This document shows, piece by piece, positions 14,274-62,478 of a stretch of 64,000 bases of DNA. This DNA is from an uncultured virus (IMG/VR IMGVR_UViG_3300042869_000273) (Duplodnaviria; Heunggongvirae; Uroviricota; Caudoviricetes), in IMG/VR virus record IMGVR_UViG_3300042869_000273; one strand, given 5' to 3'. The stretch's first letter is position 1, and every line of letters begins with the position of its first letter. The translations under genes and the position numbers were made by a program. The notes under the pieces are model-generated. The model saw only the letters and a program-made list of their open reading frames with translations. It searched no databases and had not been told where the DNA came from.

Positions 14274-14293
14274 CTTTAGCGTACCCTGGTAAA
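14274..14293 (-). promoter_or_regulatory. repeated element, copy 1; putative phage-RNAP promoter TTTACCAGGGTACGCTAAAG
   Basis: 19/20 identical to the copies at 31528 and 52400; directly after the RNAP stop codon. Confidence 0.6.
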
Positions 14294-14294
14294 C

Positions 14295-16475
14295 TTAACA
14301 AAAAGCATAATCAGAATACACAATTTGACCGACATCTAGATTACCCCTTTCAGGGATAAGGTCTTTACAGTCAAGTTCAGCAAGCAATTTTTCAAGAGGT
14401 TTAGCCTTGTAAAATTCTACAAACTGTTCTCTTACTCTATAAAACAAATCATCCATACGTCCTGGTAAAGTACCAAAAGAATCATGGACAACAGTCATCT
14501 CATAGGGTGCAGATACAACAGTCATTGTCAAGTGGGCAGCATCAAAGCTATGCACAATATTTGGTGCAGCACCTGTCTTTTGGGAATCTTTATTAATAGT
14601 TGCTTCCTCCCAAGTTTGAAGTTGAACTTTTAATTCTTCTTCACCATACTTCAACTTAGTACGTATAATAGATGGCTTACGATATGCCTGAACAACTGGA
14701 AAGTTAGTTACAGGTGTAGTCCATTTTAAGAACACATCTTTTTCATTAGATCTTTGTGCAAGATCCTGAAACATACGTAGCATAGTAGCTGGTCCTTTTA
14801 GCTTTTCATAACAAGTCTGAAATACTAAATCACCTAGCAATGCACCCCAAAGATGTTCTTTGTCACGAAGATATTCAGACATATCACGAGTGTCATCAAT
14901 AATTTGTTGACCCATGCCATATGCAGTACCACCGTAACCGAGTGTCATTACATTTCTTTTTACTACTTTACGTTGATCTTTAGGATTATCAATTTTAAGC
15001 CAGTAAACAGGAAATAATTTTTCTCGGATTGCTCTATTTTGATTACGCCATTCTTGGGCAGCAGCATAGGCTAATGCTTTTTGCTCTGTCTTTTCAGGTG
15101 CATCAAAATATGCTTTTTGTAGTTCTTTAGCTTTACTATAAACAGAATCAAACTGACCTCTTTCTTCAGGTGTTAATTTGTCTGCCATTTCTTGTAGGTG
15201 TTCCCATACATATCTTGCAATATACATGTAGACATCACCAGGAAGCTCTTGTGGAACTAAATTTACTAATGGGGCAATCTCTTCGTCTTGAGACATGGCT
15301 ACTAGATGTTGAACACCATTATTAGAACCATCAATATACACAGGTAGTGAACATTCATAATCTTCTAATTTATTTCCTAACATCAGCCATTCTTTAATTT
15401 TCTTAAGTTCATTACAAGCAGCTAAAAAAGAGAAGGGAGCATCAGTGCCAGTCCAACCTTGATTAATAGTTGGTTTTTCTGCATAGGATAAGAATAAATT
15501 AATATTCTCATCTACAAATTCTGCTCTCTGTTTTAGCGTAACTTTATCATTTCCAAAAGAATTAGAGGTATGTACTTTTAACCAGAATAAACCATTTTCA
15601 CCAAGAGGTGTAGCTTGATCTAACAAAAGTAAACCTTTTGCATTGTCACTAGATTGCTCATGTAAAAATGCAGTATTAACATATACACGACCACGAAAGT
15701 CAAAATTGTATACGTGATAGAAAGCATTATCTAAATGACTCATAGCTAATTGTTCAATAGCTTCTGCTTCAATCATTAATGATTTCTTTTTCTCTTCATC
15801 AATCTCAGAGTGTAATTTAAAAGGGCTATTGTCATTTTCCTTATGAAGAAAATATTGATATACTTTAAATACATCTTTATTAATCCTCCACCCAGTATCT
15901 TGTAGTTTATTTAAAATGTCATACAATGTTTGTTTATCATTTTTCTTAAACTGTTCTAATGCTGTGGAATGACCTTTCTTAATAATTGGTACTCCTAGAT
16001 TGTTATGGGGTGATTTCCAATATTCAGGTTTTTCTCTCATAGGAAAGATATCTACCTTAGTTTGATCAATTAAACCCCAAAGTTCTTTGATTGCCTTCCA
16101 ATCTTTAACTTGAAAGAAGTAAGCTTGATATTTGCTTTTCTTACCATTCTTGTAAGTATACTTTAGTTTAAAAGAAAGTACGCCACATTCAATATAAGCA
16201 ATGCAAACAAACCAACCTACTTGTGCATCAGAGATAGTATCATTGGGTAAGCTTAACACTTGCCTAACTCTACGACCAATAGTTGCAATAATGTCAACTA
16301 ATGTACCTCTTCTTTCTAAACCTCGTAATACATGGGGATAAGATATATCAACTAATAATTTAGAATCAACATCTTTTAAGTAATGAGTATAAATATTTCG
16401 ATCAGCCCTTAATACAGACTGTCTAGCACTAAGATCAGCTACTAATTTTTCAAGAATAGTTGTCATAGTATTCAC
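14295..16475 (-). CDS. single-subunit T7-like DNA-dependent RNA polymerase
   Basis: DFRGRVY, motif A DGSNNGVQH, motif B RKVVKRNVMTLGYG, APNIVHSFDA, motif C VHDSF, C-terminal YAFC. Confidence 0.95.
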   Translation of the reverse strand: MNTMTTILEKLVADLSARQSVLRADRNIYTHYLKDVDSKLLVDISYPHVLRGLERRGTLVDIIATIGRRVRQVLSLPNDTISDAQVGWFVCIAYIECGVLSFKLKYTYKNGKKSKYQAYFFQVKDWKAIKELWGLIDQTKVDIFPMREKPEYWKSPHNNLGVPIIKKGHSTALEQFKKNDKQTLYDILNKLQDTGWRINKDVFKVYQYFLHKENDNSPFKLHSEIDEEKKKSLMIEAEAIEQLAMSHLDNAFYHVYNFDFRGRVYVNTAFLHEQSSDNAKGLLLLDQATPLGENGLFWLKVHTSNSFGNDKVTLKQRAEFVDENINLFLSYAEKPTINQGWTGTDAPFSFLAACNELKKIKEWLMLGNKLEDYECSLPVYIDGSNNGVQHLVAMSQDEEIAPLVNLVPQELPGDVYMYIARYVWEHLQEMADKLTPEERGQFDSVYSKAKELQKAYFDAPEKTEQKALAYAAAQEWRNQNRAIREKLFPVYWLKIDNPKDQRKVVKRNVMTLGYGGTAYGMGQQIIDDTRDMSEYLRDKEHLWGALLGDLVFQTCYEKLKGPATMLRMFQDLAQRSNEKDVFLKWTTPVTNFPVVQAYRKPSIIRTKLKYGEEELKVQLQTWEEATINKDSQKTGAAPNIVHSFDAAHLTMTVVSAPYEMTVVHDSFGTLPGRMDDLFYRVREQFVEFYKAKPLEKLLAELDCKDLIPERGNLDVGQIVYSDYAFC

Positions 16476-17558: not shown

Positions 17559-17584
17559 TATAACTCCAAAATTAAAAGAACTTG

Positions 17585-31501: not shown

Positions 31502-31549
31502 TTACCTAGGGGACGCCTAGGATCTCTCTTTAGCGTCCCCTGGTAAATG
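31502..31549 (-). promoter_or_regulatory. repeated element, copy 2, within an inverted repeat
   Basis: 31521-31549 is identical (29 bp) to 52393-52421; arms ttacc(t)aggggacgc / gcgtcccctggtaa. Confidence 0.65.
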
Positions 31550-37500: not shown

Positions 37501-37911
37501 TCTAGCACCATAACCAGAACCTGCAGTTGTTATCTGCCCGAGACTGAAACAATATACTTCAGGGATATCATCTGGTACTGGGAGATAATTTGTATTTACT
37601 GCTGCATATATGTAAATACTTTGATTACCTGAATAAAATGGATTTGTTACATTATAAGCTTTGTTATATATAGTATCAGATGGCAATGAAATATAAAATA
37701 CTCCATTAGTTACATTTGGAGGACTATATGTAATACGATAAACAGAATAATTTCTGGTAACATTATCACCATGTGTATAAGAAAACGCTGGAATCTCAGA
37801 GGATATTTCTGCAGCAGCAAAACTAGCCCTTCCGACAAACCAGGGTTTTACAATTTCATTGTCAATAACTAATTCAGAAGAATCATTAAAAAATTTAAAA
37901 CCATAACTCAT
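31567..37911 (-). CDS. 2114-aa virion protein with ~15 tandem Calx-beta/Ig-like repeats
   Basis: ~110-aa repeats V.EG...YY..TGT.IT..D...AD..TEG.E...TFYSD...IGN...W.I.DTS. Confidence 0.75.
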   Translation of the reverse strand: MSYGFKFFNDSSELVIDNEIVKPWFVGRASFAAAEISSEIPAFSYTHGDNVTRNYSVYRITYSPPNVTNGVFYISLPSDTIYNKAYNVTNPFYSGNQSIYIYAAVNTNYLPVPDDIPEVYCFSLGQITTAGSGYGARLFNSSDQCVFDTTKSHLKIEPISSINFDAFVQPNGGQEYIIPAVDYPAYFLPNLDVNKLTYLDSSYFKRERYLSFFNQSGGYLSSWMPRITEEVKSGNLGFTGSRFFNASTRSSSIKSILPDSIDHNPLYINALTHSPGYIGGTFPAASYTLILSTNTAQEQEGNLAVIQCDVTTVNVPTGRQLRYTLSGTGVTASDFNDGLTGTFTISNSTSRFFLVVSSDNIFEQTETVTVTITNIDGTALVGTAQQFSLKNTKFYNLSTFPANVTSINEGEYVAVTLNTLESSTSPRVVNYTLSQVPSSVGATDQPFDANDWLDTVTLGSGATVVANRFTLPANTTTPGASIVFRAKNDFRVDGPKKLRLSIDDNPAIFVEFTVNDTSLEYSWSISGPNTINEGIEYTYDVTTSAPTGTRAIIGLTAITGASEDDIAQINGINYVSGDTYYVNTTSGLGSFTLKFKADLKTEGDESFTIFLDKDMPIPRTRLADLGFNVSLKDTSLTPINWSFSKVTGNPTTALVREGTNMVVRIQSTNVPTYPYTIYYRIAPGNGTLDTDTNFTTGSVIAFNVTSVDQQVLFQIKEDNITEGTETFQITFYRDAAGTDIITGLEWQIIDAISVERSLGFVVEGQTQTLTIKPNYLSYPYTVYGEITGGNANLTSADFISGTLLTETVLNNDNPVTLTFTGVEDYTVEGLFGEVVFFDMYSDPARTVPIGNSISWTMGDPQYVFSRSFASVNEGSNQVITISTNAVLPKILYGKMTGTNITSSDFSSPPNSTTFEWNITATGQTIGLTMAPDLTTETNPELVTLTFYHDTSFTNQAGNTVTWDIADTSKTPPPSWSFVRDPNTATVDEGVSVTVTANSSFIPSYTNLSIYYKITGTGITTEDFNLNALQGSWVIEDSSEEITFLIQADQLTEGTDSLVITFYSDSNYTTTIGNQLSFSIGDTSKTTWTFARIPATGTIDEGQPISFTATPSNPLAPNITIYYWLNGTNITTGDFTSASLEGSFNSNTGLILTMREDLFTEPFAEVAGITFYSDSNRTITIGNPLSWNIGDTSKTPPSYSLSVSETSVDEGSNFSFTIDSANVLTYPFTAYYKLSGTGITVDDTSFDPILGSVNVPGPSVSFDIDVTADQYTEGNETLTFTIYSDSNRTIQLGSPVSIVLADASKTTWSFARIPATGSINETGTNKSIAFTATPSNPAQAPITVYYWLKSVTGTILDGDFDPAGTLGSFTSNTGLTITMAADTATEGPETVEISFYSNSTRSIQIGNTLVWDVNDTSLNAPYYSVEFSSPNISNNSVNEGLAIDFSVSSSYIPLYPVTIYYKLTGTGITALDTNYALSGPIVLTSAFTSYAVNILADQLTENSETLTVSIYSDAALTTQIGNTASVILNDTSKTTWSFTRSPATGSIPEGQFISFFAQPSNASSSAITVYYGITGILASDLSSGSLTGSFNSADGKDILIYADTFTDGSNETATITFYSDSNRTVQIGNTLSWVIEDTSKSPPSYRISLYDTDETYTSTLDEGYPTWIRIQSADIPSYPQKVYYRALGTGVNTSDTDLVTTNTTGGIDGEFDLLSSNFIKVFSPLSDQLTENTETLVFKFYTLPTRLPANQIKFGPTVYDPETGLVGPLSKLTLTVNDISQTTWSFTRAPIDPVKIKETGTPSSIQISATPSNPAQSPVVFYYTIIGIEASDLTSGSLTGSFVSSAGPSIAMAADSKTEGDETAVISFYKDAAKTVSAGNSLSWVIDDTSVGAPTYSWTASPFTVDEGANVTISWSFGNIPDSMLPFTIYWQISGTNITANDTAEQALQGSFTIPARTGSFTLGMTADLFTEGTETVTGTFYTNAARTIQAGNSVTWNIADTSKTPYVPPVVYELYLDYPTTRATTIPRNAYYWFRVDLNKYNDTGSDITIVTEYRFDNTGAWTTYETLTIPPFYTGKTTTMALNNNTGPLLNLNTRARSTTAGINGMPTANLSF

Positions 37912-38277: not shown

Positions 38278-41200
38278 TTAAATTGCTAAGTTACCTATAA
38301 TAACCCTAGGTAAACTACTACTTGATCCATAAACTAATATTTGGCTATCAGTTAACAATATTCTATTGGCTCCAGATGTATTACCGATTGCTAAAGCTGA
38401 AGTAGAAATAGTACCAGTTACTACCGCACTACCATCTACATATAATGCAACTTCACCCCAACCACTTCCATTGTACAAATATGTTTTAGAATATTTTGCA
38501 GATTGATTGAATAAAGTAACCCTATCCCCAGCTCTAGGGGTTTGATTATCTATAGGTGATGTTTCTGTTACAGGGTATGCATTGGTTAAAGCAGCTTGAC
38601 ATGCAGTCGCAATTGTAGCAGGACTTGCAGATGAGTCAAAAGCTACAGCCCAAGTTAATACAGCAATACCTCTTAAGCCCTTTTTACCCTCGTCGCCTTT
38701 ACTACCTTTTGCAGTTTGCAATAGGGGTACAGTTTGTGAGTCAACTTGTGAGTTAGTACCACTTAAATACAATACACCTCTTACAAATTTTGTAGTTAGA
38801 GGTACAGTACTGCTATTTACTGGTATAGATTTAGAATTAGTAGGATCACTTGCAGCGCTAATAGTTGTCCATGAACTACCATCTGCACTTCCTTGGATCT
38901 CAATTTTACCAGCATAATTAGCATAAGCACTATTACCAGATTTTACTTCAGCATTAAAGGTTAAACTAGTAGGTGAATAGGTTAGCAATGTAGTATCATA
39001 TATTAAGCTATTAGCACTAGGTGATATCTTGTAAATAGAACTAGATTTCATTTTAGTTAATGAAAATACCTTTTTAGCAACTTCAACTCCATCTACTTTA
39101 GCTATATATGTTACTGAAGCCACATTAACAGAAGGAGAACTACTAATTCCTGAAGTAATTTCATACATTCCAAGGGAGTTTGGGGCTGCAGGAGGAGTAT
39201 CAAATCCAGTGCTAGTGTCATAATGATAAGTTACACCAGTAGCTGCTACGCCATCTTTAGTTACTAAGAATTGACCTTTAGCCTCTTGATAAGAGGTCAC
39301 TACACCTGTTTCATTTGAAGGTAAACCTTGGCTATCATTAGTGAGCCAACCAGTATAAGGTGTTACTCCATCTATTCCATCTTTACCATCAACACTCTTG
39401 TTAACAATTAATTCTTTTCTACCTATAATAGTAGCACCTAATTTAGCAATAAATGTTGCTTTACCTACATCTGCAGTAATATTTGTAACTTTTACAAGAC
39501 CAGTGTATTCTCCAATTTCAACTGAAAGATTTGTTGGGGTAATAGCAGGATCTATATAAAAAGTTAAACCAGAAGTTATGTAAGAGGCACCTCTAGCAAC
39601 TTGCATATTAGTAAAAAATGGTAGTTGATTACTTGGAGATAAGACTCCAGCTGCGGTATAACGAATAGTTTTATTTTCATTTGTGAGTGTAGCATTGTAG
39701 CTATCATCTCCATCTTTAATAGAAAATACAGTTATTTGATCGTATACATTTATAGTAGCATCTGTAGATGAAGTTACAACTACCTTGACTAATTTTGGTT
39801 GACCAATATATCTTGTTAAGGAATAAGTAGATGTTGTACCAACTGGAACTACTTGTTGTCCATCTACAAACCAAGTGTATCTAGCAGAAGTTACACCTTC
39901 AGCAACAGCAGTAAAAGTAATCGTATTAGGGAAAACATCAGTTAATGCTGTTGTATTTTTTGGTTGTACAAACGCAATACCATCAGAGGTAAGATTTACT
40001 ACAGGAGCATCCAATCCATCAGCGCCATCAGCGGCTTTATTAATTACAATCTTTTTCTCATGAATAGAACCGTCAGATGCAACTACAGCTCTAACTGTTG
40101 CGTACCCAACTCTAGACGTAAGAGGTCCTGTGAAACTATTTACAGTTACTACACCTGTGCTAGGATCTACTGTTGCATCTATATTAATATTTGAACCAGA
40201 GACAATAGAAAACAATACTGTATTTGTATTAGGGGGAGTTGTAACAGTGTTAGCAATTCCAGCACTACCACGAAATAACAACGGAGTCATTATAAGAGAT
40301 AGGAAGTCAGGAAGTATTGCTCCTGTAGGATCACAACCAATTGTTCTATTAGCATCTACATAGTCAAAATTATATGCACTACTACCATCTTTAACACTAT
40401 AAATTGTAACATTATCAAAACGTCTAATTCCTGAGTCAGCAGCTTCATAAACTTCTACATTAATATTTCTAGTTTCTCCACTAGGAAATGCAGCTAAAGT
40501 TATCATACTAGTTGTAAGAGTTACACCAGCGGGAGTAGCGCCATCAACTTCCCATACATAACGGGGGTCATCAAACGCTTCCTCTCTAGCATACACATTG
40601 ATTGAAGCTTGATCTGGGGTATTAGAGTTAGCAGGATAAACAAAACCTAATCTATCAGGGTCTAATGTAACAATCCTAGTAGCTGCAGCAGTAGACTTAG
40701 CTATTCTTAATGTAATACTTAATGTTAAGCTTGCAGCTGTGATAGTAGCATCAATATCTACTCTAGCATATGGATCTGCCACTGCAGTAACTGTGAATAT
40801 ACCATTTGTAGTTGTATTACTTTGTAGTGTACAACCAACTGGATTTAATGTATATACGATACCTTCTGTAACAGGAGTAGCTCCTTTATAAACATCAATA
40901 TTTATAGATTGAGGTAACTGGCCTGCTTCTGGTACTCCATTTGAATCACAAGTTAAATTTAAGGCTGCTTCAGATAAACCGATAGCATAAGAGTCAGAAC
41001 CTGCATTAATATAATAGACTGTTTCAAAGTCCTCTAAGAATGTAGTAGTTATTCCTTCAGTTACTCTAACTTTAATATCTTTAGTTGGGACATCAATAAA
41101 ACTAGGTACACTAAATGTAGCTGATGTTTGGCCAGCTTGTAAAACCTCGTTAATATACCATTTATAAGTAGGAGCATCAAATCCAGTTACATTTACTGAA

Positions 41201-43749
41201 AATAAAATTGCTGTTGGAGCAACTACGCTACTATTAGCTTGCTTCACAAAAGCTCTTCCACTAGCCTTTAATTTAACTGATTTACCTGAGAATGCAGTAG
41301 CAAAAATTGGTGAGACTACATTAGTTACAGCAATATCAGATAGTTTACCACCCTTACTTATTGCTCTTACACCAAATATTGTTTGATCTAACGTTAATGG
41401 AGGTAATATATATTGAGTATCTGTTGTACGACCTAATTCAGTCCAGATCACCTCTCCTCCGCCTGTAACATTACCAGGGAAATGATAGTATGTGATATAA
41501 CAATCTAGTTGAGATTCATCAGGTACTTTAGTCCATTCTAATCTTCCTGAAGAATTTAAAATTTGAGCTGTTTGTGCTATGTAAATTAAATTAGAGGGTT
41601 TACCAAATTCAAAGGAGTAAACATTAATTGCTTTGATATACTCGTTATCATCTACATTCCATGCCAATTGTGTATAATCAAACCTAGTAGCATTTACTTC
41701 ACATACTGCTTCATCCGTAATTTTTACTTCATTAACTCTTAAATATAAATCAATATCAACACCTAGTTTAAGTGTTTGACTAGATAACTTAATAAAATCA
41801 CCTGGCTCTAAGAACTTATCTTTAATTACATATTTAAATCTTATTCCAAATGCTGTCCTACTTGTTCTTACAAGTTCTTCTGCTTTAGCTAATGCATGGT
41901 AATAGTCTGTAATACCATCAGCAAATATATCAGTCTCTAAGTCTAAATCATTATCTTCTAGTTTCATAGCAGTATAAACTGCATTATTATTATTAATAGA
42001 TACTAGGCTAGTGTAATTATCAGATCTAGTAGTCCAATGTACAAATGAACCTTTAGATAATTTTCCAGCAATTCCTTTTCCACTTCCACCAGAATCCTGA
42101 GCAGTTAGTCTAATTCTGTATTCAGTATCCTTAGTTAAGCTTACTGTACCTGTGGTAATAGCTTTCCAATCTGTAGCAGAGCCTGAGTATAGTACTGTAC
42201 CCGTAGTAGTAGCTATAGAAGCAGTTGCAGAATTATCTCCTGTAAATTCAAATGTATATGAACCTGTTTCTTTTACAAAGAATTTCCATGTTTGATCAAA
42301 AGAACTTGCAGTGCTCGACCATACGGAATATTTCTTAAGCAAAACACCACCTACACTATCATCCCAAGCATCATCTACAGAGTCTGGGTATTTAAATCCG
42401 CCCACACCCCTTAATGAAACACCAGATTCTTTTGGAGGCCAAGATACTGTATCTTCCTTAAAGTTTTCAGATTCATTATGAAATCTTACTGTACAAAAGT
42501 TTAATCTTTCACTTGAGCTAGGCCAATTAATACTTACATTATCATCAATAACTAAATCATCATCTGTTAATGTATTTGCAACTACAATATTACTATTACT
42601 TGTTGGATATTGTAAACTTAATTTATATTTACCACCAGACCAAATAAGTCTTGCGTCACCCATTGTTGACAAGATAGATTCAACATTTTCTCTTAATGGC
42701 TTCTGTGTATCAATAATTGCATTACATTCATAGAGTCTAATAGCTCTAGTATTACCTGTAGTAACTCCTTCAGCACCTAAAGGGTTAAATGTTGGCTTGT
42801 ATATCTTTCCACCTATAGATGCATTTGGTAACACAGTAGTATTACAAATTAATTTAGCATTATAGAATGATTCTAAATCAATTAAACTAGTATCTAATCC
42901 TTTTCCAGCAGTATCGTCTAATAAATAATCTAGCAAACATAATGCTGGATTATTAGAATAAGATCTAGTTGTGGCTACTGAATAGGTATAACTGCCTACA
43001 CTACCAGCTCTAGTAATATCTTTGACTTTTTTACCTTCAAGGAAAAATTGTAAAGTGGGTACACCATTAAGTGCTGGATCATCTCTATCTAGTTTAATAC
43101 AGACAGAAGCATAAGCCAATCCAACTTGATCTTTAATCTGCGTAAATACTGAGCTTACTCTTTCTGGATTATTTGCAGACATCACAGAATCAGCCACTGG
43201 CAAATCACCGTAATGGATATCAACTCTAAGCCCTGACTTAACAGTATTAGATGTAAAATATTGATAGTTTGGATCTTGTTCAGTTCCAGTATTAGTACTT
43301 GTAGTTGTTGTTTGAGTAGTTGATAGATCAGGATCATCTAAGTATCTTGATTCATCTACTACAATGTCATAGACTCCATTAATTGGACCTTGACACATTG
43401 CTTGCTGGAAAAATAAAAATTCGTTTGCTCTACCTTCTACATTAGTATCAAATCCTGGAGTTAAAAATATTTTATCAGAATTAGGAGTAGCTATAACAAA
43501 GTTATTAGAAGTATTATGGTAAGATCTAACTCCACCAACTTTAGCTCTTCCATATACTACTGGAAGTGTAACCCCTTCACCTTCTACAACTAACTCATAC
43601 CCTTTTCTTGCATCAGCAGCTGCCTGAGCAGCTTTCTTCATTTTTCTAGCTTGAATTATTTGATAAGCTATTGAGGCTAGTGTAATAGCCATCTGAGCAG
43701 TAAGCACTACTCCTGCTACAATTGTTATAGCCATTATTTCTTCCCCCAT
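38278..43749 (-). CDS. tail tip / central fibre (host-specificity J-like) protein
   Basis: LPVVYGRAKVGG, YSNNPALCLLDYL, LEPGD, Ig-like C-terminal region, PRVIIGNL end. Confidence 0.8.
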   Translation of the reverse strand: MGEEIMAITIVAGVVLTAQMAITLASIAYQIIQARKMKKAAQAAADARKGYELVVEGEGVTLPVVYGRAKVGGVRSYHNTSNNFVIATPNSDKIFLTPGFDTNVEGRANEFLFFQQAMCQGPINGVYDIVVDESRYLDDPDLSTTQTTTTSTNTGTEQDPNYQYFTSNTVKSGLRVDIHYGDLPVADSVMSANNPERVSSVFTQIKDQVGLAYASVCIKLDRDDPALNGVPTLQFFLEGKKVKDITRAGSVGSYTYSVATTRSYSNNPALCLLDYLLDDTAGKGLDTSLIDLESFYNAKLICNTTVLPNASIGGKIYKPTFNPLGAEGVTTGNTRAIRLYECNAIIDTQKPLRENVESILSTMGDARLIWSGGKYKLSLQYPTSNSNIVVANTLTDDDLVIDDNVSINWPSSSERLNFCTVRFHNESENFKEDTVSWPPKESGVSLRGVGGFKYPDSVDDAWDDSVGGVLLKKYSVWSSTASSFDQTWKFFVKETGSYTFEFTGDNSATASIATTTGTVLYSGSATDWKAITTGTVSLTKDTEYRIRLTAQDSGGSGKGIAGKLSKGSFVHWTTRSDNYTSLVSINNNNAVYTAMKLEDNDLDLETDIFADGITDYYHALAKAEELVRTSRTAFGIRFKYVIKDKFLEPGDFIKLSSQTLKLGVDIDLYLRVNEVKITDEAVCEVNATRFDYTQLAWNVDDNEYIKAINVYSFEFGKPSNLIYIAQTAQILNSSGRLEWTKVPDESQLDCYITYYHFPGNVTGGGEVIWTELGRTTDTQYILPPLTLDQTIFGVRAISKGGKLSDIAVTNVVSPIFATAFSGKSVKLKASGRAFVKQANSSVVAPTAILFSVNVTGFDAPTYKWYINEVLQAGQTSATFSVPSFIDVPTKDIKVRVTEGITTTFLEDFETVYYINAGSDSYAIGLSEAALNLTCDSNGVPEAGQLPQSINIDVYKGATPVTEGIVYTLNPVGCTLQSNTTTNGIFTVTAVADPYARVDIDATITAASLTLSITLRIAKSTAAATRIVTLDPDRLGFVYPANSNTPDQASINVYAREEAFDDPRYVWEVDGATPAGVTLTTSMITLAAFPSGETRNINVEVYEAADSGIRRFDNVTIYSVKDGSSAYNFDYVDANRTIGCDPTGAILPDFLSLIMTPLLFRGSAGIANTVTTPPNTNTVLFSIVSGSNINIDATVDPSTGVVTVNSFTGPLTSRVGYATVRAVVASDGSIHEKKIVINKAADGADGLDAPVVNLTSDGIAFVQPKNTTALTDVFPNTITFTAVAEGVTSARYTWFVDGQQVVPVGTTSTYSLTRYIGQPKLVKVVVTSSTDATINVYDQITVFSIKDGDDSYNATLTNENKTIRYTAAGVLSPSNQLPFFTNMQVARGASYITSGLTFYIDPAITPTNLSVEIGEYTGLVKVTNITADVGKATFIAKLGATIIGRKELIVNKSVDGKDGIDGVTPYTGWLTNDSQGLPSNETGVVTSYQEAKGQFLVTKDGVAATGVTYHYDTSTGFDTPPAAPNSLGMYEITSGISSSPSVNVASVTYIAKVDGVEVAKKVFSLTKMKSSSIYKISPSANSLIYDTTLLTYSPTSLTFNAEVKSGNSAYANYAGKIEIQGSADGSSWTTISAASDPTNSKSIPVNSSTVPLTTKFVRGVLYLSGTNSQVDSQTVPLLQTAKGSKGDEGKKGLRGIAVLTWAVAFDSSASPATIATACQAALTNAYPVTETSPIDNQTPRAGDRVTLFNQSAKYSKTYLYNGSGWGEVALYVDGSAVVTGTISTSALAIGNTSGANRILLTDSQILVYGSSSSLPRVIIGNLAI

Positions 43750-52375: not shown

Positions 52376-52421
52376 TACCAAGGGGAGCCTCAGATCTCTC
52401 TTTAGCGTCCCCTGGTAAATG
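52376..52421 (-). promoter_or_regulatory. repeated element, copy 3, within an imperfect inverted repeat
   Basis: Minus strand CATTTACCAGGGGACGCTAAAGAGAGATC, followed by GCTCCCCTTGGTA. Confidence 0.65.
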
Positions 52422-54267: not shown

Positions 54268-55362
54268 TTAAGCGTGGAGAATAGGTAGAATACCTAAGTT
54301 CAATGCATTCATTTTACGTGCCCATGAACCAGCAGTACCATAAGCAGAGTTAGTAGCGAAAGCGTTAGTAGCGCCAGCCCAGTCATAGCCCATTGGATGA
54401 ACTACGAAGCCATAACGATACCAGATAGCAGTAGAACCACCGCCAGTATAGGCAGCTGCACTACGATCAACTTCAACAGGTGTAGGAACAGCAATGTTTG
54501 TAAAGCTGATAGCACCTGGCTTGCAAATGAATGTAGTCTTTGTAGAACGATCATTTACGTTAGCAGAAGCAGACAAGTCACCTTGAGCAACACGGCTGAG
54601 TAATAGACGGAACTTACCACCGAACACTGTTTGGAATGTTAGGTTACCATCAGTAACTGTAGTTACGTCTACTAAGTTAGCAGCACGTAGTTCAGCTAGT
54701 ACTTCAGGTGAAGTAACCATGTACATGAAGTCTGGCTCATAGTCTTTGAATGCCATGCCAAGAGCTTGGAATAGACGTTGACCACGAGCAGCACCGATAG
54801 CTGTAGCATCAAATAGCTTACGCTGATCAGAAGCAGAGGTAGCAGCGGCAGCACCGAATACACCAGCAGCATTGATATCAACGAAGTTACCAGTAGTAGC
54901 ACCATCGCCATCTGTGTCATAACCGACTAAACCAGCACCACGAGAAACTTCGTAAGCGGCTACGCCTTTGAGGGTAGCAACAATAGCGTCAGACTCGTCT
55001 TGGCTACGAACTTCAGAGAAGTCACGAGCAATTTTAGAAAGACCGTCTTGTTGAGAAACGATTTGTTGTAGGTTGATTTGCTCAGAACCAAATGTACGTA
55101 CTGTTTTGATGTAGTCAGCGATTTCTGTAGAAACATCAGTGTAAGTACCAGCATTGGCAGAGGATAAGCTAGCAACGTTAATGTTGGCAGCTAGGGGTTT
55201 GTACCAGCGCATTTGACCAATAAAGCTTTCGCCTGTTGGGTCAATACGGGCATCAGTACCAACGATGCCAGTGCTGTTAAGCTTTTTGGCATTTGAGTAC
55301 ATTTCATCAGCATATGCAGAAATAGCAATAGCTACGTTTTGGAACATTGTATGATTAATCAT
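54268..55362 (-). CDS. major capsid protein
   Basis: 364 aa after the scaffold; VEVDR...GG....WYR..VVHP.G..W; biased, high-expression-type codon use. Confidence 0.8.
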   Translation of the reverse strand: MINHTMFQNVAIAISAYADEMYSNAKKLNSTGIVGTDARIDPTGESFIGQMRWYKPLAANINVASLSSANAGTYTDVSTEIADYIKTVRTFGSEQINLQQIVSQQDGLSKIARDFSEVRSQDESDAIVATLKGVAAYEVSRGAGLVGYDTDGDGATTGNFVDINAAGVFGAAAATSASDQRKLFDATAIGAARGQRLFQALGMAFKDYEPDFMYMVTSPEVLAELRAANLVDVTTVTDGNLTFQTVFGGKFRLLLSRVAQGDLSASANVNDRSTKTTFICKPGAISFTNIAVPTPVEVDRSAAAYTGGGSTAIWYRYGFVVHPMGYDWAGATNAFATNSAYGTAGSWARKMNALNLGILPILHA

Positions 55363-55382: not shown

Positions 55383-56078
55383 TTAAAGGGTGAAGCTACC
55401 TAATTTTCCACCTGCGGCAAGTGCTAACACTTCCTCAGTAGTCATTTCAGATATCTTCTTATTGGGATCGAGTTTGGGAGTACCGTTCATATTGCTACTA
55501 CCACCCCCTGAATTAGATTTAGGTTTAAATAGGAAAGAATTATCTTCATTCTTTACATATTGTCCTACAAAATCCTTGATTGATACACCAGATTTGTGAA
55601 TCCATGCACCAGTCTCTGGATCTTGGATGAGTTGATCGATAATATCCCGATAAGCCATTTGGCCAGATCGGTCATTACGGAAATCAAGACCAGTTAATGC
55701 ATTACGAACTGCACCATCTCGGGTGAGTTCAGTTACTTTACCTTCGGCTAACGCAAGCTTTTCAGTGAGTTCTGCGAGCTTCATCTCAGCAACTTCTTTA
55801 TGCTTACCTTCATCCTCTAAAGCTTTCATCTTACGTTGTTTAGCATCATCTTCAAGACGAACACGCTCTTTAACAGCATTGTCACGTTCTTGGTAAGCTT
55901 TATCTAAACTTAGTTTGATTTTAGAAAGACGCTCTTCAACCATTCGATTGATTAAGTCTTCTGTATCTTTATTGTTAGCACCTCCACCACCAGTATCAAC
56001 CTCATCGATTTTAAACTCTGGGTTAGGTGTGTTGCTATCATCGAGGAACTCTTTGTTTCCGAACTTATCTACTTTCAT
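55383..56078 (-). CDS. capsid scaffolding protein
   Basis: Charged coiled coil, FLFK...SGGG tail, immediately before the major capsid gene. Confidence 0.75.
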   Translation of the reverse strand: MKVDKFGNKEFLDDSNTPNPEFKIDEVDTGGGGANNKDTEDLINRMVEERLSKIKLSLDKAYQERDNAVKERVRLEDDAKQRKMKALEDEGKHKEVAEMKLAELTEKLALAEGKVTELTRDGAVRNALTGLDFRNDRSGQMAYRDIIDQLIQDPETGAWIHKSGVSIKDFVGQYVKNEDNSFLFKPKSNSGGGSSNMNGTPKLDPNKKISEMTTEEVLALAAGGKLGSFTL

Positions 56079-56144: not shown

Positions 56145-59100
56145 TTACGGTCCAATACCATACCAATCCATACCTTTAGGTATAGGAGCCAGTATATCTT
56201 TTCTCGTAATCTTGTTTCGAGGATTTATTAAGCCATCCTGAATAGCCTTTTGTCTTAAAGAGTTATAGGTTGCTCTTGACAACCCTTCTTCTCTAAGAGC
56301 AAGTAAAGTTTTCTCTATTGTATCACCTTCTAAGGCATCTGCATAGATTTCTCTAAGAGCTACCTTTGACTTAGCTGCTTGTCCGATGTTTGTGAAGAAA
56401 GCATCATGAATCGTAGCGGTTTCAACACCGTTTTTACGACCCCATAAATGATATCTTCTTACAATAGCGGCATCATTCATATGGTTGCCATTAACACCCA
56501 TACCAATACCTGCTCTCATTAAACTTGATTTTCCTAGAAGTGAAGCATCTTCTGCTCGATCTTCGTAAATATTACGGACCATCCTATTAGCCTCTTTGTC
56601 ATAGAACTCAATGCTAGTTTGGATTTTAGGTCTGTATCTCTGGTATAAAGTCTTACCATCAAATGTTACCCAAGGTACATCGACCTTCTGAGTTTCATCA
56701 ACGTAAGCTTTAGCAGCCTCTTTCCAGAATTGTACGAATTTTTGAGTTACTGGTGCTCTCTCAGCTAATCTCCGAGACATGATCTCAGAGACAGATTTGA
56801 AGTCTTGAGGACCAATTAGTCCTTTACGAGCATTCATTAACTTATCGACAAACGCTTCTACGTCTGGGTGAGAATCACGAGCATGTGATAAAAGTTCCTG
56901 CCCCACAGGGGTTTCACCTTCAACAACCTCATTCAACTCACGTTTTAATTGTTTAAGACCAAATACAACATTATCAGCACCTAGCCTATCTGCTTCTTTG
57001 ATCTTTGCATCTATAATATTAGTTACACCACGAAGTTCTTCACGGGTAACAACAGTATATCCTTTTGTTTCTAATACTGAAGCAAATTTAGCCTCAATAT
57101 TAGCCGCCTGTGTTGCCTTACCAGCGCCATAGAAAGAAACCATGTTCTGAGCCTTAGCGGCTTTTTGGAGATCAGTCCATTGAACATTAGCATCTCTTAA
57201 TCCTTGTATCTTTTGAAACTCTGGATCAGACACTGTATCCATTGCTACTAAGTCATACAAACGATTCTTTTGAAGTGTAGGTAACACATTTGAGTTAATT
57301 GAAATATCTCTATCGCCTGTACTCAATCCGATGATTTGAGCACCAGAGGATGAGGCATCATTCTCAATCATTAATTTTGTTTTATAAGTTGATAGCTTTT
57401 TTAAATCAGTAAAGTCACCATTTACATGATCATATATTCTAGCATATTCAATAGCCAGCCTAGATATCTTTGGGATTTCTTCAGCTTCCTGAGAACGAAT
57501 AATAGGGTGATCTAAGAACTCTCGAATACGTCTATCACGTTGAGTTGTTTCTCTCATAAGCCTACCAAGACTTAAAATATCTTTTTGATTTCTCATAAAG
57601 ATTTCCATTCTACCTGCTTGTGTTAATGCCTCTGTAGCTGGACCTATCATAGAACCAGTTTGAATCATTAGCTCCTGAACAATTTCAGGTGTAACAGCTT
57701 CTGCCTTAGCAGTGTTTAAGAATGGACGAACAACTTCACCTCCAGTAGGAGTAAGAAACCCTTGATAATAAACACGTCCACGACCATCAATATTAGCAAC
57801 TACGCTAAATGGTTTTCCAGTATCTCTATGAAACTTTACAGTTTGCATAAAGCTATAGCCTTGATCACCACGAGTTAAAATAAGTTTTCTAAAATCATTT
57901 AAGTCATCATACTTCTTTACGTTACCACGAGGATCTCTAAAGCGTACAACATCTTCCATAAATCCAGCATACTCATTATCAACTTCATATTTAAATGACA
58001 TAGTATGATTAAGCATATCAGCAAAATCTTTATCAATTAATAACTTATCATAGTTAGCATTAGCTCTACGGGTAATAACAGTAATACCTGTATTTTTACC
58101 TCTCGCATCAAAATAAGTTTTCTCACCTGGCCTAACATAAATCTTATCTCTATCATTAATAATACCAATTCGTTGGCTTACAATTAATGCTCGATTAATT
58201 CTTTGTAAATCTAGCATATCTTTATCTAAGATTTGCACCTCACGACTAACAGTATCTCTCCAAGGACCACTGGCACGACCTGTCTCTAAGTCTACTACTG
58301 AGCGCCTAGTCTTTCCACGTTTAACAACTCGGATATACCCAGAGTCTTTTAATGCAGTAAGTATTTCAGAACCGTCTTCATGATAATCTTTTAGCGTAGG
58401 TTTAAAAAATGGGAAGTTAGGTAATTTCCAGTTAGCTCTTAATTCTTTACCAATATTGATAGCAAGTGTATCATAGTCAGTAGATTTACCATCAGCAACA
58501 ACTGACATAACTCGTGATAAAGAATCAACAATAAATTTATCGTTTGTTTTATCTTCAATATATTGTTGTAGATAACTTTGTTTATTACCACGATACAAGA
58601 ATTCGAGATCTAATATTCTTCTCCAAGCTTCTTTCTTTTCTCTAATATATTTTGTTATAAGACCTTCTTTAGGCTTATTACGGTCTAACCATAATGCCCC
58701 ACCAGGAATTTCTTCTCTAACAAAGGTCTCTAATTTCTTACTAAATGATTTAGAGTCTCTTGTTAATGGACCTCTAAACCAAGTATACAATGGTGTTCTA
58801 CCAGTGTATAATAATTTACGAGCTAAGGGTCTACCATGCCTTTCAGCCCAAGCATCCTTATACCGTTGATTATCTAATGTGTTGTTTATGATGTCATCAA
58901 AGGTATAGTACTTTCCAAATATCTGTACTTTAGCTGGTTCTCCTGCAACTCCATAAGAATCAAACTGAGAGGATCTAGCACGAGAGCGTCTATCTAAAAT
59001 ACGACTTGTATTTACTACAGAGTATTGCATCTCTCCACGAACAACGTTCATGAAATTAACCCAAGGTTGTTTATCATTATTGTATCGTTCAAATACAACA

Positions 59101-60566
59101 CGTAGATTCTCAGTAACAGCAGTTTGCTGATTAACAGAAACAGAGTCATCAAGTGTTTCTACAAAATCCCTAATCCATACTTTTTGATCTTGAGATAAAA
59201 CTTTAGAATTTCTAACGAAGTCAAGTCTTTCTTGTAAAGTAAGAAAATCAGGATCATATAGCAAGGTAGAACTTTGTTCACCAGTAAATGGATCAAAGCT
59301 ATTATTACGTTCATCAAACTCGTTGTTAGACCGAATCCTGACAGATCGCTTACCTGCTAATGTAGTACCTCTATAATCAGTTAAGGATATAGCTTGTGCT
59401 AGATTATCTGAATCAGCAATATACATCTCTCTGAGTTGTCTCTGTGCTTCTGTATTCTTTAACAATTCATTAGGTCTAGATATATTAAGCTCAAATATAT
59501 TTTCTTCTGCTTTGCTAACAGCTGTTTGCCTTGTTGGAAACCATAGCGTACGAGCATTATCTAATTTTCTTAAAGCAGCAATGCTTAGTTGATTACCTTT
59601 AGTTGTAGTAAATGCTTTAACATCTAATGCACCTTTTTGTAGTAGTCCTGCTTTTTCCTCGCTACCTAAATGTTTAACTTGAACATTCATAGGTTGACGT
59701 TTAAGCCAAATACTGTATGTTTCAACAGGAGGAGGAGCACCATTAAGTTCAACTGGATTAGTTTCTTTTAGCTTATTAGCTTTAAGTCTAGTATCAGCAG
59801 TTTCATCAAGAGACCTTAGTAATTGATCTTTACTTTTTAAGATAGGGATCATTGAACTACGACAATTCCAATGTAATGGTGGACGAAATCTTATGTCATT
59901 TATTTTATATACTTCGCCATCATGGTGAGCACAAATTGCTGATGTTCTATTATCTAGTACAGCAGTAAACCGATAACCAATCAATAATTCTTCATTACGA
60001 CTCATTACAAGATTCATTGCAGTAGATTGAGTGTTAGTAATAGCAGTTCTAACAAGAGATTTAGCTTGTACTTCGCTTAGTGTAGTAGTTTTAATAACTT
60101 CATTAATAATCTCTTTAATAGGTTTACCATCTGCTAAACCACCCTTGATTTTACCATCTATCCTTGCTAGTTCAGCAGTACCAATAGAATCAAAATGTTC
60201 TCTTAAAGTTTTAGATGCAGTAACATTAGGCCCAATTAGTTTAGGAATAGCATCACTAGCCCTAGGTCTTTGAACTCTAAAAAATTTACCTGCACTTTTA
60301 TCTAAGTTATTAGAATGAAAATTAACAGCAGCATCCGCATAATCAGTAACAGAATTATTCACAATCATGTGAAGTTCTTTAGTGGCTCTTGTAACTTCTG
60401 GTTTAACATCAGATTTGATATTATTTTTTAATAAGTCTCTAAGTCTCTTTTGATGTCTACGGATACCTCTTGAAACATTTGTAGATGTCTCTGCCTCATA
60501 TAACCTTGTATCAGCTAAGTGCTGAATAATACGATCATAGAGATCTGTATTAATTGGTGTTGGCAT
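56145..60566 (-). CDS. MuF (SPP1 gp7-like head morphogenesis) domain fused to a single-subunit RNA polymerase
   Basis: N-terminal FTAVLDNRTSAIC...DG...PPLHWNCRS; C-terminal DGRGRVYY, NDASSSGAQ, KAQNMVSFYG, NHMNDA, IHDAF. Confidence 0.88.
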   Translation of the reverse strand: MPTPINTDLYDRIIQHLADTRLYEAETSTNVSRGIRRHQKRLRDLLKNNIKSDVKPEVTRATKELHMIVNNSVTDYADAAVNFHSNNLDKSAGKFFRVQRPRASDAIPKLIGPNVTASKTLREHFDSIGTAELARIDGKIKGGLADGKPIKEIINEVIKTTTLSEVQAKSLVRTAITNTQSTAMNLVMSRNEELLIGYRFTAVLDNRTSAICAHHDGEVYKINDIRFRPPLHWNCRSSMIPILKSKDQLLRSLDETADTRLKANKLKETNPVELNGAPPPVETYSIWLKRQPMNVQVKHLGSEEKAGLLQKGALDVKAFTTTKGNQLSIAALRKLDNARTLWFPTRQTAVSKAEENIFELNISRPNELLKNTEAQRQLREMYIADSDNLAQAISLTDYRGTTLAGKRSVRIRSNNEFDERNNSFDPFTGEQSSTLLYDPDFLTLQERLDFVRNSKVLSQDQKVWIRDFVETLDDSVSVNQQTAVTENLRVVFERYNNDKQPWVNFMNVVRGEMQYSVVNTSRILDRRSRARSSQFDSYGVAGEPAKVQIFGKYYTFDDIINNTLDNQRYKDAWAERHGRPLARKLLYTGRTPLYTWFRGPLTRDSKSFSKKLETFVREEIPGGALWLDRNKPKEGLITKYIREKKEAWRRILDLEFLYRGNKQSYLQQYIEDKTNDKFIVDSLSRVMSVVADGKSTDYDTLAINIGKELRANWKLPNFPFFKPTLKDYHEDGSEILTALKDSGYIRVVKRGKTRRSVVDLETGRASGPWRDTVSREVQILDKDMLDLQRINRALIVSQRIGIINDRDKIYVRPGEKTYFDARGKNTGITVITRRANANYDKLLIDKDFADMLNHTMSFKYEVDNEYAGFMEDVVRFRDPRGNVKKYDDLNDFRKLILTRGDQGYSFMQTVKFHRDTGKPFSVVANIDGRGRVYYQGFLTPTGGEVVRPFLNTAKAEAVTPEIVQELMIQTGSMIGPATEALTQAGRMEIFMRNQKDILSLGRLMRETTQRDRRIREFLDHPIIRSQEAEEIPKISRLAIEYARIYDHVNGDFTDLKKLSTYKTKLMIENDASSSGAQIIGLSTGDRDISINSNVLPTLQKNRLYDLVAMDTVSDPEFQKIQGLRDANVQWTDLQKAAKAQNMVSFYGAGKATQAANIEAKFASVLETKGYTVVTREELRGVTNIIDAKIKEADRLGADNVVFGLKQLKRELNEVVEGETPVGQELLSHARDSHPDVEAFVDKLMNARKGLIGPQDFKSVSEIMSRRLAERAPVTQKFVQFWKEAAKAYVDETQKVDVPWVTFDGKTLYQRYRPKIQTSIEFYDKEANRMVRNIYEDRAEDASLLGKSSLMRAGIGMGVNGNHMNDAAIVRRYHLWGRKNGVETATIHDAFFTNIGQAAKSKVALREIYADALEGDTIEKTLLALREEGLSRATYNSLRQKAIQDGLINPRNKITRKDILAPIPKGMDWYGIGP

Positions 60567-60632: not shown

Positions 60633-60848
60633 TTATTCAGGTTTATTAGGAAATACTACTTCACCTTCAGGAGGATTGTTCATAAGCTCAGTAATAGCAG
60701 ACCTATACTCTGCCCACTGGTTTCTAGTAACTCCACTTAAATCACTCGATGCTATCCACTCTGTTTTAGCTAGTATTTCAGTACACTTATCTATTAGATC
60801 AGTATTATCCTGTTGTGGTGCTACACGTTTAATTATTTTAGGCTCCAT
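60633..60848 (-). CDS. small fibre-chaperone-like protein (likely start MEPK at 60848)
   Basis: L..TEW...D.....WAEYR.A......FP.KP, like the C-terminus of 21260..21706. Confidence 0.55.
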   Translation of the reverse strand: MEPKIIKRVAPQQDNTDLIDKCTEILAKTEWIASSDLSGVTRNQWAEYRSAITELMNNPPEGEVVFPNKPE

Positions 60849-62478
60849 TATTATTCCGATCATCATTATTATTATTATTATTATTGTCAGGCCGCATATT
60901 ATCTGTATTAGAGATAGATGAGTCAATGCTCATTGCTTTTGTGTCTACAAGAGGATCACTCTGGATTTCTGCTACACCCTCTTCATCATTATATTCTGAA
61001 GGTAGTACATCATTGAACTTAGCAATAGAGATAAAGGTAGAACGTGGAATAATACCTTGTTGATACCATTCTGTAACTAGCCTCATCCAATCTGCGCCTA
61101 CTGGTGTAGGGTTAAAGTCAGCACTTAATGTAAACTTAATATCTGTTGGAAGAACCTCAATATTATATTTCCACTTAAGCATTACTGTAATAATCTGTCT
61201 CATTGTTTCTGAGATACGAGTATTAAGCATACCTAACTGAGCAGTCTGGGCGGCATTACGGATTTCTAAACTTACACCTGACTCACCTGAAGAACCTTCG
61301 GGGGAGAGCATACGAATGCCCATACGAGCCATCTCTTCGATAGTAGCGGCAATACTTGCCTCCATATCTTTTAGAGCACCTGTAGGTGTATCTAGTGCTT
61401 TGATATCATCTCCTGCACGAAGTTTAATCCATGAACCTAAACCAGCATCAACAATATTCTCAAACTCTTCATCAGTCATATCTGACATAACTACTGGAGT
61501 GTATGTTGCAGCACCATAGAGTAAATGGTTACGACGGCTAATTTTATTGTATAGAGCAATCTCACGATCAATTAAAGATTGTAGAATAGGTTCTACAGGA
61601 TCAATCTGACCATTTAATGGATAAGCTGGAATGAAATTCATTCTCTCATTATTCATTAAAGGTATTTCTGTACGTGTCTTGTTCCATGCTGCATTAGCAT
61701 TATCTACTTGATACTTAGACGTAACATTACCGTTGATAACGTTAACAGACTCGTTAGTATCTCTTGTGTAGGTATCTACAACAAGCAATCCTGATTCATC
61801 TAGGTAGTAATGAGTAACTGTATCTACATAGTCTGGATGGAATTGATTTTTAGAATAGTCTTCCATATAGTAACGGAAGAGTAAGCTAGTTAATACTTGT
61901 TTATTAGTATTACGGTCTTGACCTCTACGCCAGTTAATAATATTCTCTGCTTGGATGAGCATAACATAAGGTGAAAGAGCCTTAGCTTCTTCCATTGTTA
62001 ATGCGTCTGGATTAGCAACTGTAGGATAGTCTACTAAACACCAAGCTCTAGATGACTGTAGTTCTTCCCAGATAGCAGCATCTAAGAATCCATGTAGTGA
62101 AGTCCCATCAGAGCCAAAAGAATTACGAATCCAATCTTCAGTTCCTTCAGGAAATAAGTTGTCTGGTAATTCAATTGATGCTTGTTTACGTAGTAATCCA
62201 CCTACAAGTACTTTAGCATACTGTGCTGTTAGTCCTGGTAACTCACCTTCAGCACGATAAAAATTGTACTGTTGAGAACTCATTGTAGGAGAAAATGGTA
62301 ATAGTAAGTTACTAAAATTTACTGGGTCAATTGTATCATCGTATGCTCTTGCATGCGTCTGCCCATTTAGAACAGCTCTAGCTCTTTCCCAGAGTGGCCG
62401 CATAGACTCGTATGCAGCATTAGGGTCCCCAAGGCTTTTTGTCTTAGCCTTTGATGGGGTCGTTGTTAGGTTTGCCAT
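60838..62478 (-). CDS. portal protein
   Basis: Y..Y..RA, LVDYP, PY..L..AENIINW; size and position before MuF/scaffold/capsid. Confidence 0.85.
   Translation of the reverse strand: MANLTTTPSKAKTKSLGDPNAAYESMRPLWERARAVLNGQTHARAYDDTIDPVNFSNLLLPFSPTMSSQQYNFYRAEGELPGLTAQYAKVLVGGLLRKQASIELPDNLFPEGTEDWIRNSFGSDGTSLHGFLDAAIWEELQSSRAWCLVDYPTVANPDALTMEEAKALSPYVMLIQAENIINWRRGQDRNTNKQVLTSLLFRYYMEDYSKNQFHPDYVDTVTHYYLDESGLLVVDTYTRDTNESVNVINGNVTSKYQVDNANAAWNKTRTEIPLMNNERMNFIPAYPLNGQIDPVEPILQSLIDREIALYNKISRRNHLLYGAATYTPVVMSDMTDEEFENIVDAGLGSWIKLRAGDDIKALDTPTGALKDMEASIAATIEEMARMGIRMLSPEGSSGESGVSLEIRNAAQTAQLGMLNTRISETMRQIITVMLKWKYNIEVLPTDIKFTLSADFNPTPVGADWMRLVTEWYQQGIIPRSTFISIAKFNDVLPSEYNDEEGVAEIQSDPLVDTKAMSIDSSISNTDNMRPDNNNNNNNDDRNNNGA

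Follow-up and report, generated by a model that had tools for sequence, protein, structure and literature searches.

Why should a gene for a phage head protein end in an RNA polymerase? The question is raised by an open reading frame (ORF) at 56145..60566, on the minus strand, in a 64,000-nucleotide stretch of DNA (the window) from an uncultured virus of the Caudoviricetes, IMG/VR record IMGVR_UViG_3300042869_000273. The ORF (P0001) encodes 1473 amino acids in one open frame, and an AAGGAG ribosome-binding site lies 6 nucleotides ahead of its ATG. An earlier note, made from the letters alone, had described it as a MuF head-morphogenesis domain joined to a T7-type RNA polymerase and had proposed that the MuF part serves as a tag that delivers the polymerase. 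Neither half of that proposal was contradicted by any test; it is supported, and delivery is the part that we infer. We consider it probable that the protein is a capsid-targeted RNA polymerase that is packaged and ejected, transcribes an early gene block, and then hands over to a second, free polymerase of the phage. What points to a packaged, ejected enzyme is that this is the sole MuF gene, that it lies in the late head operon, that the phage has a second polymerase, and that the polymerase part of the chain is free of cysteine.

The N-terminal residues 1-340 (59547..60566, minus strand, as are all parts of the fusion located below) make up a MuF or SPP1-gp7-type head module. Pfam Phage_Mu_F (PF04233) matched residues 136-239 (59850-60161) with an E value of 4.5e-12 and 47.1 bits against a curated cut-off of 29.6, and the PHROG head-morphogenesis family phrog_241 covered residues 3-339 of the fusion (E 2.4e-52). 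The signature that the earlier note had seen at the N terminus, FTAVLDNRTSAIC...PPLHWNCRS, occupies residues 200-237 (59856-59969). Residues 5-341 can also be aligned with the MuF protein of Pelagibacter phage Kolga.

At the other end, residues of about 701-1473 (56148..58466) form a T7-type single-subunit RNA polymerase module whose start is unsharp, falling between residues 640 and 700. Pfam RNA_pol (PF00940) matched residues 1054-1424 (E 3.1e-6; 26.7 bits against a curated cut-off of 22); this match and that to PF04233, the two kinds of model against which a check had been suggested, both exceed the Pfam cut-offs. The PHROG RNA polymerase family phrog_414 matched the fusion with an E value of 1.3e-22, and the single fusion sequence used as query found T7 RNA polymerase chains at 1.6e-5. 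A family profile of 31 members compared with solved structures found T7 RNA polymerase at 1.7e-17 in four colinear blocks, mitochondrial RNA polymerase at 1.9e-9, and N4 RNAPII at 2e-5. In hhalign, the fusion profile and the free polymerase family were paired with a probability of 97.5% (E 7.9e-12), and fusion residues 701-1429 ran colinear with residues 62-706 of the 726 in the free polymerase. These profiles place the fusion in the MuF family and also, as a very divergent member, in PF00940.

The polymerase motifs named in the earlier note all sit at their given places and in the right order. DGRGRVY, residues 927-933 (57768..57788), aligns with T7 DWRGRVY 421-427. Motif A is ENDASSSGAQ at residues 1068-1077 (57336..57365), within which NDASSSG covers residues 1069-1075 (about 57342-57362) and D1070 aligns with T7 D537. 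Motif B, KAAKAQNMVSFYG at residues 1135-1147 (57126..57164), includes KAQNMVSFYG (residues 1138-1147; 57126-57155), and its spacing, K1138-x3-M-x3-Y1146-G1147, is that of T7 K631...Y639-G640; the tyrosine Y1146 at the position of T7 Y639 presumably fits a ribonucleotide polymerase. VNGNHMNDA at residues 1359-1366 (56469..56492), with NHMNDA at 1361-1366, aligns with T7 PNFVHSQDG. Motif C is IHDAFFT at residues 1386-1392 (56391..56411), where H1387-D1388 align with T7 IHDSFGT and IHDAF spans residues 1386-1390 (about 56397-56411).

Conservation of these positions is strict. R931, D1070, K1135, K1138, Y1146, G1147, D1365, and D1388 do not vary among 31 members with identities as low as 18%, and neither does the motif A serine S1074 in 31 sequences; H1362 is invariant in 16 sequences. 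The ratio dN/dS was 0.06-0.28 in all three regions of the protein (MuF, a middle module X described below, and polymerase), with synonymous divergence saturated except in the closest pairs, and the polymerase region was the best conserved (66-92% identity; dN/dS 0.08-0.14). These values indicate purifying selection in all regions, and the polymerase module is apparently complete and active.

Is the fusion a property of one assembly? A word-indexed search with residues 700-1473 returned 410 proteins at E<=1e-5, and nearly all of the best 120 of the 410 were 1450-1600 amino acids long with both PF04233 and PF00940. When 1.84 billion cluster representatives were searched exhaustively by HMMER with residues 340-1473, only 140 matches were obtained. 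Among these, 21 were full length (at least 1380 amino acids) and aligned from about their own residue 340 on; an N-terminal MuF domain was present in 17 of the 17 full-length representatives that were scanned. In IMG/VR, 385 contigs encode a relative, and the match is one continuous frame where the contig allows. Among cultured or named phages, full-length homologues were found only in the roseophages DSS3_VP1 and DSS3_PM1 (Naomviridae), at 48% identity and annotated as "head morphogenesis" or "minor head protein-like protein," and in EBPR siphovirus 1. Because the fusion recurs in 385 IMG/VR contigs and in cultured roseophages, it is not an artefact. With purifying selection added, the fusion that the earlier note had reported is real and conserved, and we believe from its sequence relatives that it is ancient and obligatory.

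The earlier note had also stated that homologues encoding the two halves as separate genes would speak for an assembly artefact. The sole split homologue examined is that of EBPR siphovirus 1 (L004, JF412302), which is annotated as gp47, an HNH gene, and gp49, and it is broken not at the junction of the two halves but in motif B. The break falls between the counterparts of residues 1143 and 1144, the insert occupies 7170-8030, and homology picks up again immediately past the HNH stop. The start of the insert matched the Rfam group I intron model over its full length with an E value of 1.4e-8 and 40.5 bits, compared to a gathering score of 50. This split appears to be a group I intron with an HNH ORF in the catalytic core and not a pair of adjoining MuF and polymerase genes; no MuF and polymerase as clean separate genes were found in the loci examined. 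The short matches P0131 and P0142 were considered as free-standing close relatives of the polymerase module and rejected, both being contig-end fragments. Two more are partial-length ORFs: P0146 (740 amino acids, on a 61.6-kb contig) ends just after motif A, and P0152 has 765 amino acids on a 27-kb contig.

Some family members are longer than the rest. P0129 (1821 amino acids), P0141 (1890 amino acids), P0143 (2073 amino acids), P0079, and P0046 have extra segments, either C-terminal or internal ones of 350-600 amino acids or 70-130 amino acids right after MuF, in which no Pfam families were found.

Between the two recognizable ends lies a conserved module, X, at residues of about 341-590 (58797..59546), which has no Pfam, PHROG, or Atlas match; a query of the ESM Atlas with residues 256-700 gave no usable match. 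MuF followed by module X without an RNA_pol match is found in P0197 (718 amino acids) and P0184 (1057 amino acids), and Kolga gp59 (L104 3495-5396), a plain MuF protein of 633 amino acids, has the MuF and X modules and no polymerase. Since X is also present in MuF proteins without a polymerase, it is part of the head protein. The existence of such MuF-X proteins makes the polymerase seemingly the later addition, joined onto a pre-existing two-module head protein. P0184 itself has weak HINT and LAGLIDADG matches, which suggests that it carries an intein.

The neighbors of the gene are those of a head protein. The order is PhoH, portal, fusion, scaffold, and major capsid protein, so that the ORF, open throughout, does sit where the earlier note had put it, in the MuF place of a portal-MuF-scaffold-capsid series whose members match PHROGs. 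The portal gene (60838..62478, minus strand; phrog_145, E 2e-58) is directly upstream, and the scaffold and major capsid genes (55383-56078 and 54268-55362, minus strand; phrog_206 and phrog_247) are directly downstream. Beyond the capsid gene follow an adaptor, a tail terminator, a major tail protein, and a tape-measure protein of 2045 amino acids. By their sequence matches, the surrounding genes are a siphovirus head-tail module. No intergenic terminator-like sites were found between the portal, fusion, scaffold, and capsid genes, and we place the fusion in the late head operon. The arrangement recurs in relatives: of 80 related loci that were kept, 51 have a portal homologue as the immediate upstream neighbor of the fusion gene, and in most of the remainder the sequence upstream is missing. 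The fusion was the only PF04233 match in all four complete relatives. With no other MuF gene, the MuF function in these heads falls to the fusion chain.

The phage also has a conventional polymerase. A free-standing T7-like RNA polymerase gene lies at 14295..16475 (minus strand) and encodes 726 amino acids from a GTG; an ATG three codons on, at 16466, suits the relatives better. Its matches are far stronger than those of the fused module (phrog_414, E 1.2e-131; PF00940, E 1.7e-79 and 268 bits). Both polymerases occur together in nine of 12 related records, including four of four complete genomes, and the three records with the fused polymerase only are 58-75% complete.

We then compared the cysteine content of the two polymerases. 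The fusion protein has 2 cysteines in all, C212 and C235, both in the MuF core and both invariant, and the 1238 residues from 236 to 1473 have none. Past the HWxCRS motif, the family as a whole has 3 cysteines in 173,761 residues, and 135 of 138 members have none, counted over the full-length members in which that motif was recognized. The free polymerases of nine relatives have 6-11 cysteines each, and this phage's own has 7. As a positive control, the N4 virion polymerase gp50 has 0 in 3500 residues, while cysteine makes up 1.1-1.4% of the N4 helicase, DNA polymerase, exonuclease, and primase and 0.75% of the N4 ssb.

How could such a chain work? According to the available text of PMC6316719 and PMC5576092, SPP1 gp7 is portal-bound inside the capsid, present in few copies, and needed for an efficient start of infection. 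For the C-terminal cargo fused to gp7-like proteins, delivery to the host has been proposed (available text of PMC6316719, PMC5576092, and PMC5512222). By analogy with SPP1 gp7, the MuF module (residues 1-340) would bind the portal during procapsid assembly, so that the entire 165-kDa chain would be enclosed in the head in a few copies. At infection, the chain would pass out by way of the portal and the long tail, together with the DNA or before it. It would be largely unfolded in transit, with which its lack of cysteine is consistent. The polymerase module would then transcribe the early block, which would enter first, and would need neither host RNA polymerase nor newly made protein. The free-standing polymerase gene belongs to that block, and the free polymerase would go on to transcribe the replication and virion genes from a 20-nucleotide promoter-like motif. 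In this scheme, packaging, ejection, activity, and the use of promoters by each enzyme are steps that we infer.

The 20-nucleotide motif, TTTACCAGGG(G/T)ACGCTAAAG, occurs three times on the minus strand: immediately after the free polymerase gene (14274..14293), between genes in the tail-fibre region (31528..31547), and upstream of the major tail protein gene (52400..52419). Three copies compare with 0.02 expected, and all are intergenic and on the coding strand. In two of the three, the motif is followed by AGAGAGATC and an inverted repeat. The first copy is conserved in the loci of six of nine relatives (L088-L093, three of which are near-identical to one another) as well as in G001, a near-copy of the window. 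The motif fits a candidate promoter of the free polymerase. Its placement recalls T7, in which the first promoters lie just behind gene 1. An exact k-mer search for promoters returned AT-rich runs only.

A second signal concerns the early genes. A strong terminator-like hairpin (18729-18747, minus strand) closes the late block with its auxiliary metabolic genes, and right behind it is a conserved element with TATAAT and an imperfect hairpin (18676-18712, minus strand). The window, G002, and G006 have this early element without a difference. G001, G002, G006, and G004 (there with 3 mismatches) each have one or two copies, at this spot only, and none was found in G003. Folded as a single strand, it gives a weak hairpin (-4.9 kcal/mol; z -2.24). 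The element heads a block of small genes leading to the free polymerase gene, which makes it the best candidate early promoter, whose user could be either the injected enzyme or the host polymerase.

Two further observations belong here. A tandem pair of units of about 38 nucleotides, at about 17560-17646 (minus strand), reads ..CTC.G..AGAGAGACC.TCT.GGGGTA.GTAC.A.. with a short hairpin in each unit. Downstream of the pair come four small ORFs and then the free polymerase gene. Among the relatives' loci that were examined no such pair turned up; most of these loci ended short of that region. In addition, two freshwater metatranscriptome runs gave contigs, 90-99% alike, that map to 52-57 kb, where the genes for tail, capsid, and scaffold and the 3' portion of the fusion gene lie, to about 57.5-58.4 kb, and to the portal region. 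Their cover excludes parts of the stretch, including the 5' half of the fusion gene, and because DNA carry-over is possible we did not count them as evidence of expression.

Several observations weigh against a packaged and active polymerase, and those that concern catalysis come from motif B. The canonical arginine is missing. As the earlier note had rightly cautioned, a glutamine, Q1134, sits 12 residues before Y1146 where T7 has arginine, giving K-x2-K and not R-x3-K. The position is variable among relatives (Q, A, or V), and the next residue, K1135, is the invariant one; the motif can be aligned with that of the compact PF00940 protein P0250, a canonical motif B with arginine at Y-12. The spacing of the motifs is also unusual. 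D1070 and Y1146 are 76 residues apart and Y1146 and D1388 are 242 apart, whereas T7 RNA polymerase and the phage's free polymerase have a longer A-to-B and a shorter B-to-C segment. Because of this spacing, hhalign mis-registers motif B. In the PDB, phmmer with the motif A-B segment alone found nothing above chance level. The missing arginine, the odd spacing, and the PF00940 score of 26.7 bits are what one would see if the module were a catalytically dead relic, kept as a bulk internal protein or a DNA-binding plug. We find this extremely unlikely, however, with both catalytic aspartates, the motif B lysine, tyrosine, and glycine, and the DxRGR arginine invariant in 31 members and dN/dS at about 0.1. 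The EBPR siphovirus 1 intron with its homing endonuclease sits exactly in motif B, and group I introns and homing endonucleases typically occupy conserved, functionally critical sites.

Four compact metagenome proteins with PF00940 (P0228, P0243, P0246, and P0250; 520-606 amino acids) resemble the fused polymerase in their short A-to-B spacing and in a motif B of the MVSFYG type, and BLAST of the fused polymerase against P0250 gave an E value of 4e-14. Close relatives of the four among named phages were not found. They may be an undescribed group of small single-subunit polymerases.

The start of transcription provides further points on the negative side. Just upstream of the free polymerase gene is a sigma-70-like site with 11 of 12 matches (TTAACA-17-TATAAT, 16646-16618), and the conserved early element contains a perfect TATAAT. 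Since both are present, host polymerase could start the programme, as in T7. In Pelagibacter siphovirus Kolga, a similar free polymerase goes together with a plain MuF of 633 amino acids, so the fused polymerase is not generally needed for this type of genome. These observations would suit an enzyme that is packaged and ejected but acts mainly as a DNA-entry motor or a maker of replication primers, with host polymerase expressing the early genes, including that of the free polymerase. T7 and N4 internalize DNA by transcription, and T7-type polymerases prime replication. We nevertheless judge such a role unlikely to be the main one. Sigma-70-like sites are not enriched in either of the two regions scanned (40 versus 44.5 expected and 42 versus 46.1 expected), and the 11-of-12 site, which overlaps a hairpin, could have arisen by chance in a genome of 35% G+C. 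Moreover, a motor or primer-making role overlaps with early transcription by an injected polymerase instead of excluding it, because promoter-specific transcription would still be required.

Delivery itself is the last place where the reading of an ejected polymerase meets resistance. We know of no direct precedent for the passage of a 165-kDa protein through a siphovirus tail. The virion proteins of this phage are generally poor in cysteine (34 of 11585 residues, or 0.29%, in virion-module ORFs versus 77 of 5872, or 1.31%, in non-virion ORFs), which makes zero cysteine in one protein a weaker argument than the family-wide figure. In the available main text of the DSS3_VP1 paper (PMC8323127), there are no matches for "RNA polymerase," "RNAP," or "minor head" and there is no virion proteome. 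The polymerase might then stay in the producing cell, for example in a late role while tethered to the procapsid or portal, or be cleaved off so that only MuF enters the head. Such a fate would agree with expression from the late block and with the ClpP-type protease gene at 2-706, through which processing is possible. Even so, we rate it as decidedly unlikely. The free polymerase already has its promoter-like motif before the late genes, and the family-wide loss of cysteine from the fused and not the free polymerase is hard to explain for a cytoplasmic enzyme. MuF and polymerase were never clean separate genes in the loci examined, and in 16 sequences compared, none of the methionines from residue 1 to residue 851 is invariant, which makes a conserved internal start codon unlikely.

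With the packaged, ejected polymerase as our preferred reading, we compared the fusion with known systems. The closest parallel is N4. Both phages have a single-subunit polymerase of the T7 superfamily among the late virion genes plus a second phage polymerase; both chains avoid cysteine (0 of 3500 residues in gp50, 0 of 1238 after the MuF core here); and the proposed logic, an injected enzyme that starts the transcription programme, is the same. The proteins themselves are different. The fusion was rejected as a member of the gp50 family, having no detectable homology to gp50 (hhalign probability 0.3%, E 0.18) and only a faint match to phrog_2166 (E 0.0023), and the fused module is far closer to T7 and the mitochondrial PF00940 enzymes. 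N4 is a podovirus, whereas here a tape-measure gene and tail genes of the siphovirus type are present. The N4 virion polymerase transcribes from early hairpin promoters; the hairpin in the conserved early element of this phage is weak. The late genes of N4 use host polymerase; here, the tail genes are preceded by the candidate motif of the free polymerase. N4 gp50 has 3500 amino acids and, according to the available text of PMC5512222, is encapsidated via its own C-terminal region, in contrast to the N-terminal MuF domain that would be the packaging tag of the fusion.

Compared to SPP1 gp7, Mu gpF, and MuF proteins with cargo, the likeness is an N-terminal MuF domain encoded beside the portal gene and followed by a C-terminal enzymatic domain. 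The MuF cargoes listed in the available text of PMC5512222 and PMC5576092 are toxins, ADP-ribosyltransferases, RNases, RelA/SpoT domains, and similar. The cargo of the fusion is much larger, at about 1130 amino acids, and is a polymerase, not a toxin; unlike the MuF toxins, it would serve the phage's own gene expression. With T7-type PF00940 enzymes the fused module shares motifs A, B, and C and DxRGRVY in the same order, and about 730 residues are colinear with the free polymerase. It differs in being very divergent (26.7 bits to PF00940 versus 268 for the free enzyme), in the K-x2-K of its motif B and the spacing on either side of it, in lying behind two head-protein modules, and in having no cysteine. 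The phiKZ-like, AR9/PBS2, and crAss-like phages also package one polymerase and follow it with another of their own that is not in the virion. Their enzymes, however, are multisubunit or two-barrel proteins unrelated to the T7 fold, and to our knowledge none of these virion polymerases is MuF-tagged.

Full-text searches of the literature gave no description of a MuF-polymerase fusion. Term searches of PMC8323127, PMC12697855, PMC12669031, PMC5576092, PMC5512222, and bioRxiv 10.1101/2025.10.29.685362 returned no such fusion, and the word "polymerase" has no occurrences in the MuF-toxin paper (PMC5576092). A 2017 survey, in its available text, gives virion RNA polymerase modules only in N4-like phages (PMC5512222). 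Database pipelines compute both Pfam domains on these proteins and yet name them head or minor capsid. The combination would be that of a virion polymerase with a MuF cargo tag.

The Naomviridae-like clade comprises hundreds of marine and freshwater genomes, DSS3_VP1 and DSS3_PM1 among them. From the lack of homology to gp50 we derive the wider proposal that these siphoviruses invented the N4 strategy independently, with a T7-type polymerase of about 130 kDa behind a MuF tag, cysteine-free passage through a long non-contractile tail, and a relay of two polymerases that frees the entire transcription programme from host RNA polymerase; to us the arguments for and against this stand in even balance. 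Virion-packaged T7-type polymerases have so far been a hallmark of N4-like podoviruses. If the proposal is true, such polymerases would also exist in long-tailed phages, as an unrelated second lineage whose packaging tag is defined, a case of convergent evolution of host-independent early transcription. It would explain how infection starts in an abundant and globally distributed phage group and would provide a simple rule for loading large cargo into capsids, in which MuF would be a general, engineerable tag even for very large enzymes. The idea is directly testable because DSS3_VP1 and DSS3_PM1 are in culture on Ruegeria pomeroyi DSS-3.

Other features of the genome are recorded here. The ClpP-type protease gene (PF00574) at 2-706 runs off the low end of the window behind ribonucleotide reductase genes; PHROGs labels it as a head maturation protease, and its product could process head proteins, including the fusion. 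A gene for a SegE-like GIY-YIG homing endonuclease (6330-6776) stands between the 5'-3' exonuclease and primase/helicase genes. Two ORFs of the tail region, at 31567-37911 and 38278-43749, encode 2114 and 1823 amino acids, with internal repeats of about 330-690 nucleotides and almost no family matches.

As in the uracil-DNA phage DSS3_VP1, a gene of the dCMP-deaminase family is present in the window (7631-8044). The DSS3_VP1-type dTMP phosphatase family PF12917 gave a match in DSS3_VP1 only, below the cut-off (22.5 bits versus 25.9), and no match in three of three complete close relatives (G002-G004). For this clade, a link of the fused polymerase to uracil DNA is not supported, since PF12917 was not found in these relatives and the window has the dCMP-deaminase-family gene only.

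DNA of this phage recurs in lake-water metagenomes, where 22 of 24 listed runs had half or more of the sampled words; 10 of those 22 may be the sequence's own source. At the end of the late block, auxiliary metabolic genes at 18839-20042 and 20090-21263 encode a heme oxygenase (PF01126), two 2OG-Fe(II) oxygenases, and a ferredoxin-dependent bilin reductase (PF05996). These genes, the 35% G+C content, and the lake-water origin may jointly hint at the host.

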